Shown piece after piece: positions 14,339 through 20,464 of a DNA stretch of 64,000 nucleotides (within the stretch, counting starts at the first letter, position 1; each line of letters opens with the position of its first letter). Under the pieces are notes generated by a model. That model worked only from the letters and a program-made list of their open reading frames with translations. It was not told the origin of the DNA and did no database searches. This DNA is from Candidatus Eiseniibacteriota bacterium (GTDB taxonomy: Bacteria > Eisenbacteria > RBG-16-71-46): contig JBGPFC010000010.1 of NCBI GenBank assembly GCA_041483195.1, positions 39,448 through 103,447 of the forward strand, written 5' to 3'. Position numbers and translations under genes: made by a program.

Positions 14339-15520
14339 TCAGCCCCCGCTCCCCTCGAGCGCCTGCTCGAGGTCCGCGCGAAGATCCGCGACGTCTTCGA
14401 TCCCCACCGAGAGCCGCAGCAGCCCATCGGCGAATCCCATCGCGAGCCGCGTCTCGCGGGGGACCGAGGCGTGGGTCATGGACGCCGGGTGGCATACCAG
14501 GCTCTCGACCCCGCCCAGGCTCTCGGCGCGGGTGAACAGCCGGAACCGATCGAAGACTCGCCGGCCGCTCTCCAGCGATCCGTCGCCGGGGATGAACGAG
14601 ATCATGCCCCCGAATCCCGAAGCCTGGCGGCGCGCGAGCGCGTGCTGCGGATGACTCTCGAGTCCGGGATAGAACACCGCGCTGACGCGCGGATGTGCCT
14701 CGAGCACCGCCGCGAGCGAGCGCGCATTCTCATCGTGCCGCTGCATGCGCACCGCGAGCGTCTTCGTGCCCCGCAGCGCGAGCCAGCAGTCCATCGGCCC
14801 CGGCACCGCGCCCGCCGCGTTCTGGAGAAACCGGATCTGCTCGGCGAGCGGCTCGTCGCTGGTGATCAGCGCCCCGCCCACCATGTCGCTGTGCCCGTTC
14901 AGGTACTTGGTCACCGAGTGGACCACGACATCGGCGCCGGCCGCCAGCGGGCGCTGGAAGAACGGGGTCATGAACGTGTTGTCCACCACGACCCGGATGC
15001 CGCGCCGGTGGGCGCGCGCGCTCACGTCGGCGATGTCGGTGATCTGCATCATCGGGTTGGTGGGCGTCTCGATGAACACCAGCCGGGTCTCGGGCCGGAT
15101 GGCCGCCTCGACCCCCGCGGCATCCGCGGCGGGTACGAACGTGAAACCGAGCCCCAGCCGCTTGAACACGCGTTCGAACAGCCGATAGGTGCCACCGTAC
15201 AGATTGTCGCCGGCGACCACGTGATCGCCCGCCGACAGCGTATGCATCAGCGTCGTGGTCGCCGCCAGCCCCGACGCGAAGCAGAAGCCGTGGCGCCCGC
15301 CCTCGAGCGCGGCCAGGTTGTTCTCGAGCGCGGAGCGCGTGGCGTTGTGGGTGCGCGCGTATTCGAAGCCCTTGTTGCGGCCGAGCGCCTCCTGCGCGTA
15401 AGTCGAGGTCTGATAGATCGGCACCGTGACCGCGCCGGTGGTGGGATCGGGCTCCTGTCCCGCGTGGATCGCCAGCGTGCTGAAGCCCGACCGCGGCCTC
15501 ACCGCCCCTTCTCCGCCCAT
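14339..15520 (-). CDS. Cystathionine gamma-lyase/synthase (PLP, Cys/Met metabolism)
   Basis: IYQTSTY, YAR, IETPTNP, VDNTF, HSVTKYLNGHSD, AESLGGVESL and RLSVGIED motifs; TGATG coupling to cbs. Confidence 0.92.
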   Translation of the reverse strand: MGGEGAVRPRSGFSTLAIHAGQEPDPTTGAVTVPIYQTSTYAQEALGRNKGFEYARTHNATRSALENNLAALEGGRHGFCFASGLAATTTLMHTLSAGDHVVAGDNLYGGTYRLFERVFKRLGLGFTFVPAADAAGVEAAIRPETRLVFIETPTNPMMQITDIADVSARAHRRGIRVVVDNTFMTPFFQRPLAAGADVVVHSVTKYLNGHSDMVGGALITSDEPLAEQIRFLQNAAGAVPGPMDCWLALRGTKTLAVRMQRHDENARSLAAVLEAHPRVSAVFYPGLESHPQHALARRQASGFGGMISFIPGDGSLESGRRVFDRFRLFTRAESLGGVESLVCHPASMTHASVPRETRLAMGFADGLLRLSVGIEDVADLRADLEQALEGSGG

Positions 15521-16911
15521 CACACCCCTCCCGCGATGAAGTGGAGCATGTCGAACCGCGTCAGGATGCCGGTCACCGCGCCGTCCTCGCTCACCAGCAC
15601 CGCCGGGTTGCGGCTCGCGAGCAGGCGCGTGACCTGCGCGACCGGCTCGTCGCTCTTCACGACCGGCAGCGGCTCGCCCATCAGGGACTCGACCGGCTGA
15701 TCGAGCGTCGAGGAATCCGCGAGCACGCGCTTCAGGATCTCGCTGTCGACGAGCGTGCCCACCACCTCGGCTCCGCGCAACACCGGAATCTGCGAGATGT
15801 CGTGCTGCTGGACCAGCGCGAGCGCCCGGCGGAGCGGCTCGCCGACCTGCACCGTGAGCAGCCGCGGCGACTGCCGGCCCTTGATGCCGAGCACGTCGGC
15901 GACCCGCGTCGCGGCGGGATCGAGCAGGTGATTGTCGCGCATCCACTCGTCGCTGTGCACCTTCGTGAGGTAGCGCTCGCCGGTGTCGGGGAGCAGCACC
16001 ACCACCAGCGCGTCGGCCGTCAGATCCTTCGCGACCTGGAGCGCGACCCACACCGCCATCCCCGACGATCCGCCGACGAAGATCGCCTCCTCACGCGCGA
16101 GACGGCGCGCCATGTTGAGCCCGTCGCGGTCGTTGCACGCGACGACCTGGTCGATCACCGAGAAGTCGGTGGCGGTCGGGATGAAGTCCTCGCCGACGCC
16201 CTCGATCTTGTAGGGATGCGCCTCCGCCATCTCGTGCGTCTCGTGATAGTGCTTGAGGATCGACCCCACCGGGTCGGCCCCGATCACGCGCACGCGGGGG
16301 TTCTTCTCCTTGAGATAGCGCCCGGTCCCGGTGATGGTGCCCCCGGTCCCCATGCCGCACACGAAGTGCGTGATCTTCCCAGCGGTCTGCTCCCACAGCT
16401 CGGGGCCGGTGCTGGCGTAATGGGCCTGCGGATTCGCGGGGTTGTGATACTGGTCGGTCAGAAACGCGCCCGGGCGCTCTGCGGCGATGCGCTTCGCGAC
16501 CGAGTAGTACGACTGAGGGGAGTCGGGCGGGACCGCGGTCGGCGAGAGCATCACCTCCGCGCCGAATGCCTTGAGCAGATTGACCTTCTCGCTCGACACC
16601 TTGTCCGGCATGCAGAAGACGGCGCGGTAGCCCTTGATCACCGCCACCATCGCGAGTCCGAGCCCGGTGTTTCCCGATGTGCACTCGACGATGGTTCCCC
16701 CGGGCTTGAGCTTGCCCGCGCGCTCCGCGCTCTCCACCATCGCGAGCCCGATGCGATCCTTGACGCTTCCGCCGGGATTGAAGAACTCGAGCTTCGCGAG
16801 CACCGGGGCCGCGCTCTGCCGCGCGACGCCACCGAGCCGCACCAGCGGCGTGCGCCCGACGGTCTCGAGGATGTTCTCGTGGTAGCGCACACCGTCCAGG
16901 ACGTGACTCAC
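15520..16911 (-). CDS. cbs: Cystathionine beta-synthase with C-terminal CBS domains
   Basis: NPGGSVKDR, SGNTG, GTGGT, IEGVGEDF and PDTGERYLTK motifs, plus tandem CBS domains. Confidence 0.92.
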   Translation of the reverse strand: MSHVLDGVRYHENILETVGRTPLVRLGGVARQSAAPVLAKLEFFNPGGSVKDRIGLAMVESAERAGKLKPGGTIVECTSGNTGLGLAMVAVIKGYRAVFCMPDKVSSEKVNLLKAFGAEVMLSPTAVPPDSPQSYYSVAKRIAAERPGAFLTDQYHNPANPQAHYASTGPELWEQTAGKITHFVCGMGTGGTITGTGRYLKEKNPRVRVIGADPVGSILKHYHETHEMAEAHPYKIEGVGEDFIPTATDFSVIDQVVACNDRDGLNMARRLAREEAIFVGGSSGMAVWVALQVAKDLTADALVVVLLPDTGERYLTKVHSDEWMRDNHLLDPAATRVADVLGIKGRQSPRLLTVQVGEPLRRALALVQQHDISQIPVLRGAEVVGTLVDSEILKRVLADSSTLDQPVESLMGEPLPVVKSDEPVAQVTRLLASRNPAVLVSEDGAVTGILTRFDMLHFIAGGV

Positions 16912-17022
16912 GGGGAACAGACTCCTGTCGAAGATGGGCCTTGCGGATTCGGCTGGCGGCCGGCGCGCCTGTTCGCGGCCGCGTGGGGTGCGGCCAGGCC
17001 GCGCACTCTGGGCCGGACCGGC

Positions 17023-17051
17023 AGATTAGGCGCGGGGCTTTTCGCGGTCAA
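17023..17051 (-). promoter_or_regulatory. sigma70-type promoter upstream of cbs
   Basis: TTGACC-N17-TAATCT on the minus strand. Confidence 0.55.
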
Positions 17052-17118
17052 GCGGGCGGACTCGGGGTCCGCGGCCGGACGAGGCGGGCGCGCCCGCGGT
17101 GGTGGGGCGCGCCCGGCG

Positions 17119-18471
17119 CTAGTGGATGATCTTCGACCGCTTCTGGGCGAAGTTCCAGCTCGGATCGTTGTCGCCCTGGTGGCAGGTGACGCACACCTGC
17201 TCTGTGACGGCGCGATGCTCCTTCGTGTAGGCGTCGTGCTGGGTTCCCATGCCGTGGCAACTTTCGCACTGGACGTTGACGAGCGCCGGCGATTCGCTGG
17301 CATTCACGAATCCGCCTGGCTTCTTGTAGCCCACCACGTGGCACGAGACGCAATCGGACGACGTGTCCTTGTGGTTGTCGATCAGCGTCTGCCAGGCACG
17401 CGCGTGGGGCGTCGTCTTCCATTGCTCGGCCTGCTGGGCGTGGCAGCGAGTGCAGACCTCGGCGCCCACGAACTTGTCGGGGCTGTTCTCGAGATCCTTC
17501 TGGGCCTGCTGCACGACCTGTTCCTTCTCGCGCTTGCGCAGTTTCTCGTTCCAACTGTCGTCGAACAGCTTGACCATCTGCGCGATCTCGGGCTTCTCGC
17601 CGACCTCGGGCCCGAGGATGAAGGTCTCGTTGTCGCCGGTCGTCACGTGGCGCTTCGCGTCGAGCGCGAGCACGGTGCGCCCGATGTACTGGCCCTGCTC
17701 GCCGCCGTAGCAAGCGACCGTGGTCTTGATGAGACGGCCCTTCTGGAGCATCGGCGCGTTGCGTCCGACGATCAGCGCGTCGATGCCGTCCACCGCGGTC
17801 ACCAGGTCTTCGCTCTCGACCTTGCCGAGCTGCGAGAGCAGCACGATGACCGTCGCGCCCTTCTTGCGCATCTCGGCCACGGCCGCCTTGGCCGCCGCGA
17901 CCGGATCCTGGACGACGAGCGAGTCGCGGGCCGGGCCGAGGTCCACTTTGTCGCTGATGACTCCCATGATGCCGAGCGTGGCCGTTCCCACCTTCTTGAC
18001 GACGTAGGGCTGGAGCACGGGCTTCTTCGTCTTCTTGTCCATCAGGTTGACGCACACGACCGGGAGATGGTCGGCCGCGGCGCGCGACTTGATGAACGCG
18101 AGCCCGTAGCGCAGATCACGATCGCCCACGCCCACCGCGTCGGTGCCGAGCACCTTCATCGCGTCCATCAGGAACCAGGCGACGTCCTCGTACTGATCCT
18201 GCTCCGGGAAGTAGCCGCCGTTGTCGACGAGCACCACCTGTCCGTACTGCGCCTTGATGCTGTCCGTGAAGCTGGCCCGCCGGGCCAGTCCGCCCTTGGG
18301 GGTGTGTCAGCCACAGGGACCGGTCTTGCCCTTCACGTCGGTGGTCGAAAGGATGATGACCTTGTCGGGCTCGAGCGTGGAGTGACTGGCCGTCGTGGCG
18401 CCCGAGAGCATGACCCACAACAGGACGGCCATCACGGCGGACGCGAGCAGGCGGGAAGCCAGCGACTTCAT
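17119..18471 (-). CDS. Putative selenoprotein: UshA/5'-nucleotidase-like domain (CGU motif) fused to a tetraheme cytochrome c554-like domain, 450 aa
   Basis: ATG at 18471 gives signal peptide MKSLASRLLASAVMAVLLWVMLSGA..., then ILSTTDVKGKTGPCG-TGA(18309-18307)-HTPKGGLARRAS, in frame with track ORF 17119..18237. Four heme motifs: CTRCH, CVSCH, CESCH, CVTCH. Confidence 0.85.
18268..18291 (-). promoter_or_regulatory. Bacterial SECIS-like hairpin
   Basis: mRNA CUGGCCC-GGC-GGGCCAG (18288-18272) starts 18 nt after the UGA and has a G-starting apical loop; the stem can be extended by GGA/UUC pairs. Confidence 0.7.
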
Positions 18472-18535
18472 GGAGTGCGATCTCCGGTCTCGAGGGTGGC
18501 ATCGCGTCGAAGCGTGGCGCGCGAAAACGCTTGCG

Positions 18536-18565
18536 ATTCTACGGGTCTGGCTCCGGCAACGTCAA
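18536..18565 (-). promoter_or_regulatory. sigma70-type promoter upstream of the selenoprotein gene
   Basis: TTGACG-N18-TAGAAT on the minus strand, about 65 nt upstream of ATG 18471. Confidence 0.6.
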
Positions 18566-18587
18566 GAATATGGGCGTCCGGATTTTG

Positions 18588-18881
18588 CTAAACCTCGACC
18601 CGATAGCGCCGCAACAGATCCTTCGATGGCACCCGCTTGCGGGAGCCGCCATGGACGACCAGGACGCGGAACCCGTACCGCTCGAGTCCGAAGTGGCGCT
18701 CGATGATCCGGACCAGCCCATCGATCGTCGCGTCGCCGCGGATGGTTCGGCCGCGGCGGCCCTGCCCGTGCGCCCGGGCCAGCCCCGCCTCGTAGCCTTC
18801 CTCGTATGAGCGCTTGAGCAACCGTTGCAGAGTCCGCCAGTGGGTGAGGCGCAGCTTCTTCAGGACCTGTGTCTGGGTCAT
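18588..18881 (-). CDS. Small basic hypothetical protein, possibly with a beta-grasp/ubiquitin-like C-terminal half
   Basis: GGGAGGG RBS; extended -10 TGCTAGAGT at 18917-18925; 97-aa ORF with typical codon usage. Confidence 0.7.
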   Translation of the reverse strand: MTQTQVLKKLRLTHWRTLQRLLKRSYEEGYEAGLARAHGQGRRGRTIRGDATIDGLVRIIERHFGLERYGFRVLVVHGGSRKRVPSKDLLRRYRVEV

Positions 18882-19181
18882 GACGTGCCCTCCCTGAATA
18901 CTTGGAGCCCGCCGGGACTCTAGCAGACGGCCGCACCGGCCGCTCGGAAACCGGGGAGTCCCCCCGGCGCCGATGAGCCGGCGGTCGGCATCGGGGTCCG
19001 GCCGCGCTCCCGCCCCGCGGGATTGCGAGGTCCGCGCGAGGGTCTTACACTGAGTGGTCCCTTAAGGACCTCCGGACCGCACCGATGCGGGGGCCGGAAG
19101 CACGCCGATCGGACTCCCGGTTCGGGCCGCGAGACGGGAGACGATCGAAGACCGAAGGCCGATCATGGGAGCGAGAGGCGC

Positions 19182-20039
19182 ATGGCGATTCCGGAGCATT
19201 CCGATCGCGGTCCGAGCGGCGATGAAACCCTGCGATTCGCACTTCTGATACTCGTGATCGGGATCGGTCTCGGGATCGCGTACAACGCGCTCGGGCTCGC
19301 GAGCCGGCCCGCCCGGGGCCTGCCGTGGGTCGGGCACGCCACGAGCGTGCAGAGCCTCGAATCGCTGGAGTCGCTCCCGGATGCGACGCCCGCAGCGGCC
19401 TCGACCCGCGCACCGACCACGACGCCCGCGCCGAGCGGCACGGGGGCACAAGCTGCGAAGACGCCTCCGTCGCACCCGGATTCGACAGCGCGGGCGGCGA
19501 CTCCCGCGCGCGGCACCAGGTCCCCGTCCAAGACGCCCGCCGCTCCCCCCCGGCACGCCGCGGTCACCACTCCCGCCCCGATCACGGCGCCGCCCCCCGC
19601 CGCGACGCCGCCCGCCGCGATGCCGCCCGCCGCGCCGGCCACGGCGCCCCGCACCGCCGACCTGCCGGTGATTCCGGACGTGAGCGGTCCGCTCAAGCTG
19701 GAGATCGCGACGCTCCGGCGGCTCTACGACGCCGACGCGGCGCTCATCATCGACGCCCGGGATTCCGAAGACTACAAAGACGGCCACATCGCGGGCGCCA
19801 TCGGCCTCTCTTACAACGACGCCCTCGCCGAACCCGACAGGGTGAAGCGGCTCGATTCGGGCGGGCGCCCGTTCGTGCTCTATTGCAGCGGCGGGGATTG
19901 CGAGCTGTCCATGGATCTCGCGAAGGTGCTGGTCGCCGCCGGCAAGCGGAAGGTTCTGGTGTACGAGGGTGGCTTCCCCGAGTGGCAGGCGGCGGGCAAT
20001 CCGGTCGCCAAGGGCCCGGACCCCGGAGCGCGTCCATGA
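19182..20039 (+). CDS. Membrane-anchored rhodanese-domain protein with Pro/Ala/Thr linker
   Basis: N-terminal TM helix; IIDARDSEDYKDGHIAGA, YCSGGDCELS and YEGGFPEW motifs. Confidence 0.85.
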   Translation: MAIPEHSDRGPSGDETLRFALLILVIGIGLGIAYNALGLASRPARGLPWVGHATSVQSLESLESLPDATPAAASTRAPTTTPAPSGTGAQAAKTPPSHPDSTARAATPARGTRSPSKTPAAPPRHAAVTTPAPITAPPPAATPPAAMPPAAPATAPRTADLPVIPDVSGPLKLEIATLRRLYDADAALIIDARDSEDYKDGHIAGAIGLSYNDALAEPDRVKRLDSGGRPFVLYCSGGDCELSMDLAKVLVAAGKRKVLVYEGGFPEWQAAGNPVAKGPDPGARP

Positions 20040-20464
20040 GCGCCGGCGGAAATTTCCTCACCTCGCGCGCGCTCGTCGGCCTGTGCCGAATCGTGGTCGG
20101 ACTCGTCATGATCGCGGCGGCGCTCGGCAAGATCGGCGACCCCGCGGCGTTCGCATCGCAGATTCATCACTACCGTCTCATCCCGGCGGCCCCCGAGAAC
20201 CTGCTCGCCATCACGCTTCCCTGGATCGAGCTGGTCGCGGGGCTCGCTCTGGTGCTCGGCGTGCGGGCGCGATCGGGAGCATGGCTGGTGGCGGCGATGA
20301 TGGTGGTCTTCACGCTCGCCGTGACCTCCGCGCTCGCGCGCAACCTGAACATCGACTGCGGTTGCTTCGGCACCGCCGACGCCTCGCGGATCGGATGGAC
20401 GAAGCTGCTCGAGAACATCGCCCTGACCGGCGCTGCGGTGGTCGCCTCGCTGCGACCGAGATGA
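20036..20464 (+). CDS. MauE/DoxX family redox-associated membrane protein
   Basis: KIGDPAAF, LPWIELVAG and NIDCGCFG motifs; ATGA overlap with the rhodanese gene. Confidence 0.88.
   Translation: MSAGGNFLTSRALVGLCRIVVGLVMIAAALGKIGDPAAFASQIHHYRLIPAAPENLLAITLPWIELVAGLALVLGVRARSGAWLVAAMMVVFTLAVTSALARNLNIDCGCFGTADASRIGWTKLLENIALTGAAVVASLRPR

Follow-up and report, generated by a model that had tools for sequence, protein, structure and literature searches.

Gene structure and flanking signals

Two open reading frames are listed on the minus strand of the window (the whole stretch of 64,000 nucleotides that was analysed), 18307..18471 with an ATG start (54 aa) and 17119..18237 with a GTG start (372 aa), and the locus raises the question whether the two are one selenoprotein gene and, if they are, what its product does. 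Both are in the same frame, which is continuous except for the TGA at 18309-18307 that separates them. With TGA translated as selenocysteine (U), the minus strand could be read from the ATG at 18471 through this single TGA (codon 55) as far as the stop at 17119. The whole gene (17119..18471) then has 450 codons and a TAG stop, and its product of 450 residues and 47 kDa includes ...ILSTTDVKGKTGPCGUHTPKGGLARR... and four CxxCH motifs. Cys-type full-length homologues aligned along the entire 450 residues. The joining of the 372-aa frame to the ATG at 18471 by read-through, as stated in the original prediction, was thus borne out by the single frame and its translation.

Read-through had also been claimed to supply a signal peptide, and the N-terminus, MKSLASRLLASAVMAVLLWVMLSGATTAS, does have the appearance of a Sec-type signal peptide, predicted at approximately residues 1-28 (18388..18471, minus strand) from K2, R7, a hydrophobic stretch and small residues before S29. 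Residues 4-24 of this predicted signal peptide formed a helix in the AlphaFold2 model and the N-termini of relatives were similar to it. The promoter claimed upstream was recovered as a sigma-70-like pattern, TTGACG and TAGAAT separated by 18 nt (18565-18536, minus strand), which is a pattern match only (10/12 positions) and was the single site found in a scan of 16900-18800, where 0.1 were expected from shuffled sequences. A possible Shine-Dalgarno sequence, GGAG, lies 10 nt before the ATG (18482..18485, minus strand). Right after the stop codon there is a GC-rich hairpin (17086..17114, minus strand), a possible terminator lacking a T-run, and the 76-nt stretch with this hairpin had a folding energy of -42.1 kcal/mol (z = -3.2, equally stable shuffles 0/200); it was not called as a terminator in the pattern scan. 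Among the 23 runs listed there was no RNA run with the gene.

The in-frame TGA in related loci

Eighty related loci were fetched, of which 77 were informative and three ended before the TGA site. The codon aligned to the TGA was TGA in 41 loci and a cysteine codon (TGC or TGT) in 36, and Trp or any other residue was found in none of the 77. The 41 loci with TGA at this codon span several phyla. Among 24 aligned homologues, 22 were full-length with PCGC and the remainder were truncated gene calls (three such calls in all). The genome itself encodes SelB (352.7 bits, cut-off 242), SelA (552 bits, cut-off 268) and SelD (348.6 bits, above the cut-off, with one TGA in selD itself), and a tRNA-Sec with the anticodon tca was identified by ARAGORN. 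Contigs from four other metagenome runs (X3-X6) had identical letters at the TGA. Given that the aligned codon was always TGA or Cys in the informative loci, the sequence comparisons indicate that the in-frame TGA (18307..18309, minus strand; P52-C53-G54-U55) is a genuine selenocysteine codon of an exported protein. The selenoprotein that the TGA had been claimed to hide was therefore upheld.

If the TGA were instead a real stop, a nonsense mutation or a sequencing error, the gene would either be dead or yield the 372-aa product of the frame from the GTG at 18237. The 21 best database matches (P0002-P0022) are indeed called in this way, at 372-382 aa and with 83-85% of the query covered. This is nevertheless highly improbable, given that 41 loci of several phyla share a TGA at this codon and the others have Cys, that the contigs of the four other runs have the same letters, that the Sec machinery is present in the genome and that the 54 upstream codons are conserved and supply the signal peptide required by a c-type cytochrome. 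Reading of the TGA as another amino acid (such as Trp or Gly) through a changed genetic code, for which the open frame was the sole argument, has next to no probability, since relatives invariably have Cys, and never Trp or Gly, at the aligned position, the other long frames matched in the genome had no internal stops except selD, a classic selenoprotein gene, and a dedicated tRNA-Sec and SelB are present. These comparisons supported a genuine selenoprotein gene that gene callers have divided in two.

A hairpin downstream of the UGA

The 7-bp hairpin with a G-starting loop that had been described 18 nt after the UGA was found at 18288-18272 (minus strand) and was specific to Sec-type loci. It is a SECIS-like structure, CUGGCCC-GGC-GGGCCAG, with a folding energy of -12.1 kcal/mol, and its GGC loop begins 25 nt after the UGA. 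The bSECISearch model has 16-37 nt from the UGA to the apical loop and a G in the loop. In the proposed mechanism the hairpin starting 18 nt downstream would guide SelB and tRNA-Sec in decoding UGA codon 55 as selenocysteine.

Related sequences are not independent, so that the statistics overstate the signal, those for the hairpin included: the best hairpin had a median of -11.5 kcal/mol in 39 Sec-type compared with -4.35 kcal/mol in 34 Cys-type sequences (Mann-Whitney, p = 1.6×10−10); compared with synonymous-codon shuffles the median p was 0.10 for Sec-type and 0.70 for Cys-type sequences, and the hairpin of the window reached only p = 0.05; within the 39 Sec-type sequences 78.9% of cells were paired compared with 70.1% in shuffles (0/500 shuffles reached 78.9%), and four of nine pairs were changed on both sides, with 22-49% for pairing in slid controls. 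The hairpin recurs with compensatory changes in other Sec-type loci and is absent from Cys-type loci, and in the Acidobacteriota-type group it is formed on different codons at a similar distance from the UGA. Folding of the whole segment after the UGA was unremarkable in the window (z = +0.44), and such whole-segment z-scores did not separate Sec-type from Cys-type sequences (p = 0.24), the two being separated only by the position-specific hairpin test. An Rfam search of 17000-18700 gave no bacterial SECIS family and nothing else relevant, only a chance miRNA match (E = 0.91).

Relation to a catalogued selenoprotein family

The protein family is already catalogued, so that the prediction, although right, concerns a selenoprotein of a known kind. 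When U was read as C, NCBIfam NF041198, 'UshA_like_PCGU', was the top match and the single strong one among the family models (E = 3.5×10−81), with positions 7-269 and 344-518 of the 519 in the profile matched, so that both domains were covered. The whole-protein score of 273.3 bits is 1.7 under the curated cut-off of 275, which is an operational naming threshold. Among 26 relatives 9 passed (275.7-359.2 bits) and 17 scored 202.5-274.9 bits; the Eisenbacteria-type clade straddles the cut-off (267.6-287.8 bits, with 280.7 bits for L030, which is of the same clade as the protein in the window) and core members score 350-359 bits. The protein shares with the family the P-C-G-U/C motif, the signal peptide and a 5'-nucleotidase-like N-domain followed by a tetrahaem domain, and it differs in having a linker that left profile positions 270-343 unmatched and in lacking the short C-terminal tail of many relatives. 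The fusion of a nucleotidase-like domain to haems is therefore the standard architecture of a curated family and is not special to this gene.

The family appears as 'COG0737, UshA-like, CxU' in the selenoprotein survey of Zhang and Gladyshev 2008 (PMC2398784) and also in selenoprotein reviews (PMC9312934, PMC13188914), these surveys and reviews dating from 2008, 2022 and 2026. In the accessible parts of the literature on UshA-like selenoproteins the family was found in tables only, with no experiment on it and no text on the haem domain or on function.

A nucleotidase-like domain with a degenerate metal site

Approximately residues 36-326 (17494..18366, minus strand) make up a 5'-nucleotidase-like domain of the metallophosphoesterase fold together with a long linker helix. 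The AlphaFold2 model had a pLDDT of 92.1 and a pTM of 0.86, and its N-domain matched the N-domains of CD73, UshA and the Thermus 5'-nucleotidase 2z1a in Foldseek (E about 1×10−21, about 305 columns). The fold of this N-domain, the long linker helix and the start of a helix at GG-x-A-R-R are shared with 5'-nucleotidase, UshA and CD73, from which the protein differs by lacking the two-metal ligands, by having a Cys-Gly-Sec loop inserted after the first strand and by having a cytochrome in place of the C-terminal substrate domain. Pfam found no 5'-nucleotidase domain in the protein, and the C-terminal nucleotide-binding domain is missing.

The metal ligands were compared with those of 2z1a by profile alignment, using the UshA residue numbers, and one of the seven positions compared was retained (D45); the others were changed from His to K47, Asp to G86, Asn-His to D117-R118, His to Q214 and GH to G236-R237/N238. 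An alignment of 56 family members, out of 91 sequences collected, had the Asn or His of motif III in 0/56 members, the Asp of motif II in 8, the His of motif IV in 10 and the His of motif V in 11. The degenerate phosphoesterase ligands that the original prediction had pointed out were thus evident, and the alignment suggests that the degenerate metal site is a trait of the whole family beyond this protein.

The fold of the 5'-nucleotidase catalytic domain is retained, but the protein is not a phosphoesterase because the two-metal site is lost and the nucleotide-binding C-domain is replaced by a cytochrome. That the protein still acts as a phosphoesterase or nucleotidase, or as a SoxB-like hydrolase, with the haems as accessories, is very unlikely: the fold is that of the 5'-nucleotidase N-domain, the models for CpdB, UshA and SoxB gave weak matches (64, 40 and 55 bits, respectively) and the GD, His and GH motifs are retained in some subfamilies, but these scores are far under the model cut-offs, D45 is the sole ligand kept among seven, Asn and His of motif III are missing from every member aligned and Pfam found no substrate-binding C-domain of nucleotidases. 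The SoxB-like reading in particular (TIGR04486) was rejected on a score of 55.4 bits against a cut-off of 550 and on the missing ligands. The best explanation, and a very probable one, is that a single gene encodes an exported member of the 'UshA-like, Cys-x-Sec' selenoproteins that is not a phosphoesterase.

The tetrahaem domain

Residues 333-450 (17122..17475, minus strand) form a c554-like tetrahaem cytochrome c domain with CxxCH motifs at C340-H344 (17454-17440), C374-H378 (17352-17338), C402-H406 (17268-17254) and C427-H431 (17193-17179). Pfam PF13435 matched with 63.2 bits (cut-off 20.8), residues 332-439 matched cytochrome families only, and at least three CxxCH motifs were found downstream in 73/73 related loci with enough sequence. 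The claimed fusion of an UshA-like C-G-U domain to a tetrahaem cytochrome was confirmed by the four motifs, by PF13435 and by the NF041198 profile, which was matched in both halves. Nitrosomonas europaea cytochrome c554 (1bvb/1ft5; E = 4×10−15 for 1bvb) likewise has four haems, with haem motifs I-III collinear and H356 corresponding to His27 of c554, but it is a stand-alone electron carrier without Sec and the match is limited to its residues 4-97.

The four CxxCH motifs together with H356, H412 and H450 are invariant or nearly invariant in the family, which gives three distal His for four haems, and haem 2, bound by C374xxC377H378, is the sole haem for which the family retains no distal His. 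In the OcwA preprint (10.1101/641308) haem 2 of the c554-type scaffold is described as the active site.

Possible function of the Cys-Gly-Sec loop

Within the 56-member alignment C, G and U/C of the P-C-G-U/C motif were found in 56/56 members and P in 55/56, and the N-domain invariants were limited to C53, G54, U/C55, G60 and G85; therefore the Cys-Gly-Sec loop is most likely the catalytic centre. According to the 2z1a alignment the loop occupies the place of the former metal site. We prefer to read the protein as a chalcogen redox enzyme of the periplasm, whose Cys53 and Sec55 would act beside haem 2 of the c554-like module. After export to the periplasm, directed by the predicted signal peptide, the C-terminal domain would receive its four c-type haems. 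A small chalcogen compound (polysulfide, selenite or similar) would be the substrate for thiol/selenol redox chemistry at the Cys-Gly-Sec loop, and electrons would pass along the haem chain. Whether the loop and haem chain do serve in chalcogen redox chemistry is about an even call.

The multihaem selenoenzyme MccSep, or ExtKL (GSU2937-2936), is a polysulfide reductase of Geobacter sulfurreducens, an enzyme type discovered in 2026 in which a Sec beside a Cys-ligated haem reduces polysulfide (PMC13510729). The UshA-like PCGU family is an obvious next candidate for such chemistry because MccSep works with a Sec next to a Cys-ligated haem. Both are multihaem c-type cytochromes of the periplasm in which a non-haem domain contributes a single Sec and an invariant Cys accompanies the Sec chemistry; both have Sec- and Cys-type relatives and a SECIS-like hairpin no more than about 30 nt away, and in both one haem (haem 2) is without a distal His (PMC13510729). 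MccSep carries five haems, its Sec belongs to an Ig-like domain and is close to the C-terminus, and its haem-ligating Cys is 86 residues from the Sec (PMC13510729), whereas the protein in the window has four haems and a nucleotidase-like domain in which C and U are two residues apart, with the Sec at residue 55. Direct homology to MccSep/ExtKL was rejected, there being no match in family-model or profile searches, and 21 families reached E ≤ 1 for this protein without the ExtKL model NF040886 being one of them; any mechanistic likeness would therefore be analogous, not homologous.

It is possible, and we propose it tentatively, that the UshA-like PCGU family is a second, independently evolved architecture of the MccSep enzyme type, in which a dead nucleotidase metal pocket was rebuilt as a Cys-Gly-Sec loop on the distal side of haem 2 to give a periplasmic reductase of the polysulfide/selenite type or an oxidase working in reverse. 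Cys53 would then be a ligand or a close neighbour of the iron, with Sec55 attacking a chalcogen-chalcogen bond. If this were true the enzyme would be widespread in Eisenbacteria, Acidobacteriota and Myxococcota, with the Cys form in sulfur-cycling Gammaproteobacteria. The invariant C-G-U loop offers a sharp, testable target for the function of the family.

Cys53 and Sec55, with His56, might instead bind a metal such as copper beside the haem, in a haem-metal centre like that of MccA, or might serve to sense or trap metals or metalloids. The sulfite reductase MccA reportedly has a haem-metal (copper) centre, and weak sequence matches to MccA were obtained (E = 0.003-0.008); two chalcogen ligands two residues apart fit linear metal binding and the loop is at the position of the old metal site. 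Metal binding is nevertheless unlikely, given that His56 is not conserved (H in 18 of 56 members, S in 21, T in 6) and that no metal-handling gene was found among conserved neighbours.

Neighbourhood, annotation and distribution

When 2,484 ORFs flanking 81 loci were compared all against all, conservation of a partner never extended past a single clade; the largest clusters of true neighbours comprised 12 and 9 loci, and Pfam assigned unrelated functions to the cluster representatives. Since no neighbour conserved across the family indicates a substrate, functional inferences were not drawn from gene context. The 21 closest database entries are cut at the UGA and so lack the signal peptide and the putative active-site loop. 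Source names of relatives are 'cyclic-nucleotide phosphodiesterase (5'-nucleotidase family)', 'multiheme cytochrome' and 'hypothetical', none of which signals a selenoprotein without a phosphoesterase site.

The gene is nearly universal in the order to which the window belongs, with a match in 30/31 genomes searched from the same genus, family or order (own genome included), so that it probably belongs to the core set of periplasmic redox proteins in these uncultured bacteria of sediments. The best match had exactly one TGA in 27 of the 30 genomes (26/29 when the unpublished G020 is left out), was of the Cys type in one and was partial in two.

Gene structure and the read-through frame

The gene runs on the minus strand from ATG 18471 to the TAG stop codon at 17121-17119 and encodes 450 residues, with a TGA at codon 55 (18309-18307) as the only break in the frame. 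A mechanical ORF list splits it at this codon into two minus-strand pieces, one of 54 aa (18307..18471) and one of 372 aa with a GTG start (17119..18237), and as originally predicted, reading through the single in-frame TGA joins both to ATG 18471. The read-through product contains the string ILSTTDVKGKTGPCGUHTPKGGLARR, carries four CxxCH motifs (residues 340-344, 374-378, 402-406 and 427-431) and begins with a basic and then hydrophobic, signal-peptide-like N-terminus. This signal peptide had also been claimed, together with a promoter; the latter was found in the site scan as a sigma-70-like pattern (TTGACG, 18 nt, TAGAAT; 18565-18536, minus strand) matching at 10 of 12 positions, one site in the 1.9 kb scanned versus 0.1 expected. 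The ATG has a GGAG 10 nt ahead of it on the same strand. Directly 3' of the stop codon (17114-17086, minus strand) the self-complementary GGGCGCGCCC forms a GC-rich hairpin, which the terminator scan misses because it has no T-run; the surrounding 76-nt stretch has a fold energy of -42.1 kcal/mol (z -3.2). Flanked by the promoter-like site and this strong hairpin, the gene is unaccompanied in the window. The 21 closest database entries (P0002-P0022) were called from starts past the UGA, with lengths of 372-382 aa and 83-85% coverage of the query, and some relatives are named at source as cyclic-nucleotide phosphodiesterases (5'-nucleotidase family).

The TGA codon as selenocysteine

Four independent lines of evidence make it almost certain that codon 55 specifies selenocysteine. 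Contigs of four further sediment-metagenome runs, possibly from one campaign, cover 18180-18600 or more with zero differing letters, and the TGA is not an assembly error. Among 24 aligned database relatives, P-C-G-C stands at the TGA position in all 22 that are full-length, three rows of the alignment being gene calls that start past this site. Of 80 related loci taken from species-representative genomes, three end before the site and 77 hold the region, and in these the aligned codon is TGA (41 loci, Sec-type) or TGC/TGT (36 loci, Cys-type), never a codon for Trp or any other residue, as the selenoprotein reading predicts. By their MAG labels the loci range over Eisenbacteria, Acidobacteriota, Myxococcales, Latescibacterota, Nitrospirota and many Gammaproteobacteria. 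Within the genus, family and order of the window, a match was found in 30 of the 31 genomes searched, and the best match has exactly one TGA in 27 of the 30 (26/29 when the unpublished G020 is left out), the others being one Cys-type and two partial matches. The genome itself encodes the machinery that had been proposed as a check: selA, selB and selD all score above curated cut-offs and a tRNA-Sec gene (anticodon tca) adjoins selD. SelD is a selenoprotein too, as its gene (G000:C9:87191-88583; L018/L022) contains a TGA in frame.

The SECIS-like hairpin

The predicted 7-bp hairpin with a G-starting loop was located as CUGGCCC-GGC-GGGCCAG (18288-18272, minus strand), starting 18 nt past the UGA. 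When the best perfect-stem hairpin within 10-40 nt downstream of the codon-55 site was taken at each locus, the median energy was -11.5 kcal/mol for 39 Sec-type loci versus -4.35 for 34 Cys-type loci (Mann-Whitney, p = 1.6×10−10; the sequences compared in this and the following statistics are related to one another). When shuffles preserved both the encoded protein and each gene's codon usage, Sec-type loci had a median empirical p of 0.10, Cys-type loci one of 0.70, and the window's own hairpin p = 0.05; the folding energy of the whole segment after the UGA was unremarkable. Most Sec-type hairpins have a 7-9 bp stem and a GGC or GGA triloop. In the alignment of the 39 Sec-type sequences 78.9% of the pairing cells are paired versus 70.1% in shuffles (reached by 0/500), with just 22-49% in a slid-register control, and both sides have changed at 4 of 9 pairs (e.g. 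C-G 15 / G-C 11 at one and C-G 26 / U-A 8 at another). In an Acidobacteriota-type group (loci L058, L059, L064, L076, L080 and L102) an insertion displaces the peptide and the hairpin lies on QLGGLY codons, not on LARRAS as in the window, while it still starts 12-14 nt past the UGA. That the distance is kept on other codons argues for selection on the hairpin at the RNA level.

Family assignment

The top family is NCBIfam NF041198, "UshA_like_PCGU: UshA-like (seleno)protein" (E = 3.5×10−81; runner-up family 64 bits). The match splits into profile positions 7-269 and 344-518 of 519, the latter being the cytochrome domain; the fusion of a UshA-like domain to a tetrahaem cytochrome is therefore present as predicted, and it is how members of this curated family are normally built and not a peculiarity of this gene. 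At 273.3 bits the protein falls 1.7 bits short of the naming cut-off of 275, which was passed by 9 of 26 relatives scored, NF041198 being the top family in all 26. Eisenbacteria-type sequences fall on both sides of the cut-off (267.6-287.8 bits), the model core (Acidobacteriota, Deltaproteobacteria and Latescibacterota-type) scores 350-359 bits and Cys-type gammaproteobacterial forms 203-258 bits. The gene is a new, slightly divergent member of a catalogued family. A table in Zhang and Gladyshev 2008 has the entry "COG0737, UshA-like, CxU" (sequences: 76 Sec-type, 92 Cys-type), and their Discussion ranks it among the major families (PMC2398784); "UshA-like protein, CxU" is listed in a 2022 review (PMC9312934) and the accession NF041198 in a 2026 review (PMC13188914). 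These are table entries, and the literature search turned up no account of what the protein does or of its haem domain.

The nucleotidase-like domain

Foldseek searches with a confident AlphaFold2 model built on 56 family members (pLDDT 92.1, pTM 0.86) recovered CD73, UshA and Thermus 5'-nucleotidase at E about 10−21, the alignments spanning about 305 columns and falling on their N-terminal catalytic domain and linker helix. The nucleotide-binding C-domain of these enzymes has no counterpart here, the cytochrome standing in its place. In a profile alignment to the Thermus structure 2z1a, only the D of DxH is kept (D45); the H of DxH is K47, the D of GD is G86, the N-H of GNHE is D117-R118, the motif IV His is Q214 and GH is G236-R237/N238. 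The metal site had been described as degenerate from this sequence, and the tallies extend this to the family: the motif III Asn or His occurs in 0/56 aligned members, and the motif II Asp, motif IV His and motif V His survive in 8, 10 and 11. With the metal ligands lost and the C-domain replaced, the earlier view that the protein is not a nucleotidase, the N-domain lacking a phosphoesterase site, is well supported. The conserved feature is instead Cys-Gly-Sec, in the loop following the old DxH motif: only C53, G54, U/C55, G60 and G85 are invariant in the whole N-domain, and P52, G48, G61, R64, N142, D231 and G260 are nearly so.

The cytochrome domain and a possible mechanism

The C-terminal part matches Pfam Cytochrome_C554 (63.2 bits) and aligns to Nitrosomonas cytochrome c554 (1bvb, E = 4×10−15) with haem motifs I, II and III in identical order and H356 opposite c554 His27. 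Besides the four family-wide CxxCH motifs just three further His are conserved (H356 in 56/56, H412 in 55/56, H450 in 53/56 members), and no conserved Met, Lys or Tyr was found in this domain among the 56 members, which leaves one haem without a conserved distal ligand from the cytochrome domain. Haem 2 of c554 is five-coordinate. In an OcwA preprint haem 2 is given as the active site of the c554 scaffold (10.1101/641308).

The product is an exported selenoprotein with four haem-binding motifs and an invariant C-G-U/C loop, devoid of a phosphoesterase site. The Cys-Gly-Sec loop would be the catalytic centre and would exchange electrons with the haem chain; that it is "wired" to all four haems, as originally proposed, is plausible. 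A precedent is MccSep (ExtKL) of Geobacter, described in August 2026 as a periplasmic five-haem selenoenzyme in which haem 2 has His and Cys as ligands and the Sec of a separate non-haem domain lies 3.6 Å from that Cys; it reduces polysulfide and, less well, selenite (PMC13510729). Outside the generic haem module the UshA-like family is not homologous to MccSep: the ExtKL model gives no match at E ≤ 1, there are four haems versus five, and the Sec is at the opposite end of the protein. The same ingredients are nevertheless on offer, which leads us to favour, with middling confidence, thiol/selenol chemistry on a chalcogen substrate beside haem 2. The more specific version, in which Cys53 would ligate or flank the haem 2 iron, is tentative.

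Neighbouring genes and other family members

Directly downstream on the same strand is a PALP+CBS-domain gene (cystathionine-beta-synthase-like, 15520-16911, minus), with a Cys/Met-metabolism PLP enzyme also downstream within 14339-16051 (minus); upstream and divergent are a rhodanese-domain ORF and a MauE/DoxX-domain ORF (19023-20464, plus), whose stop-to-stop frames overlap. The order PALP+CBS then Cys/Met PLP occurs only in 7 close Eisenbacteria-type loci, and the sulfur-related neighbours are confined to the 7-8 Eisenbacteria loci nearest to the window's. Among the related loci compared, none of the neighbouring genes is kept throughout the family, and the sulfur-related context was therefore given no weight.

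A second, Eisenbacteria-type subfamily (L041-L052; 34-37% identity, motif APCGUHAHPLGG) retains the phosphoesterase motifs GD, His and GH and not motif III; conserved neighbours of its own include an upstream ORF of about 1,130 aa with no Pfam match. There are tandem paralogues as well: Cys-type copies adjoin Sec-type copies in locus L053 (2831 and 3986) and genome G008 (C29:28696-31597), and in two family-f3 genomes (G029:C183, G025:C175) the Sec-type gene is followed by a shorter, N-domain-only copy without a TGA (residues about 6-315). Eisenbacteria-like copies, as much as 60% identical to the protein in the window, occur in records labelled Saccharimonadaceae (L037), Limnocylindrales (L043), Binatia (L045) and Patescibacteria (L097), labels that may be binning errors. 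The window's own genome also holds a 1,198-aa frame (G000:C22:30017-32536, no TGA) with two matches, of 87 and 35 bits, to the nucleotidase-like part of NF041198; it is a different, larger UshA-like protein.
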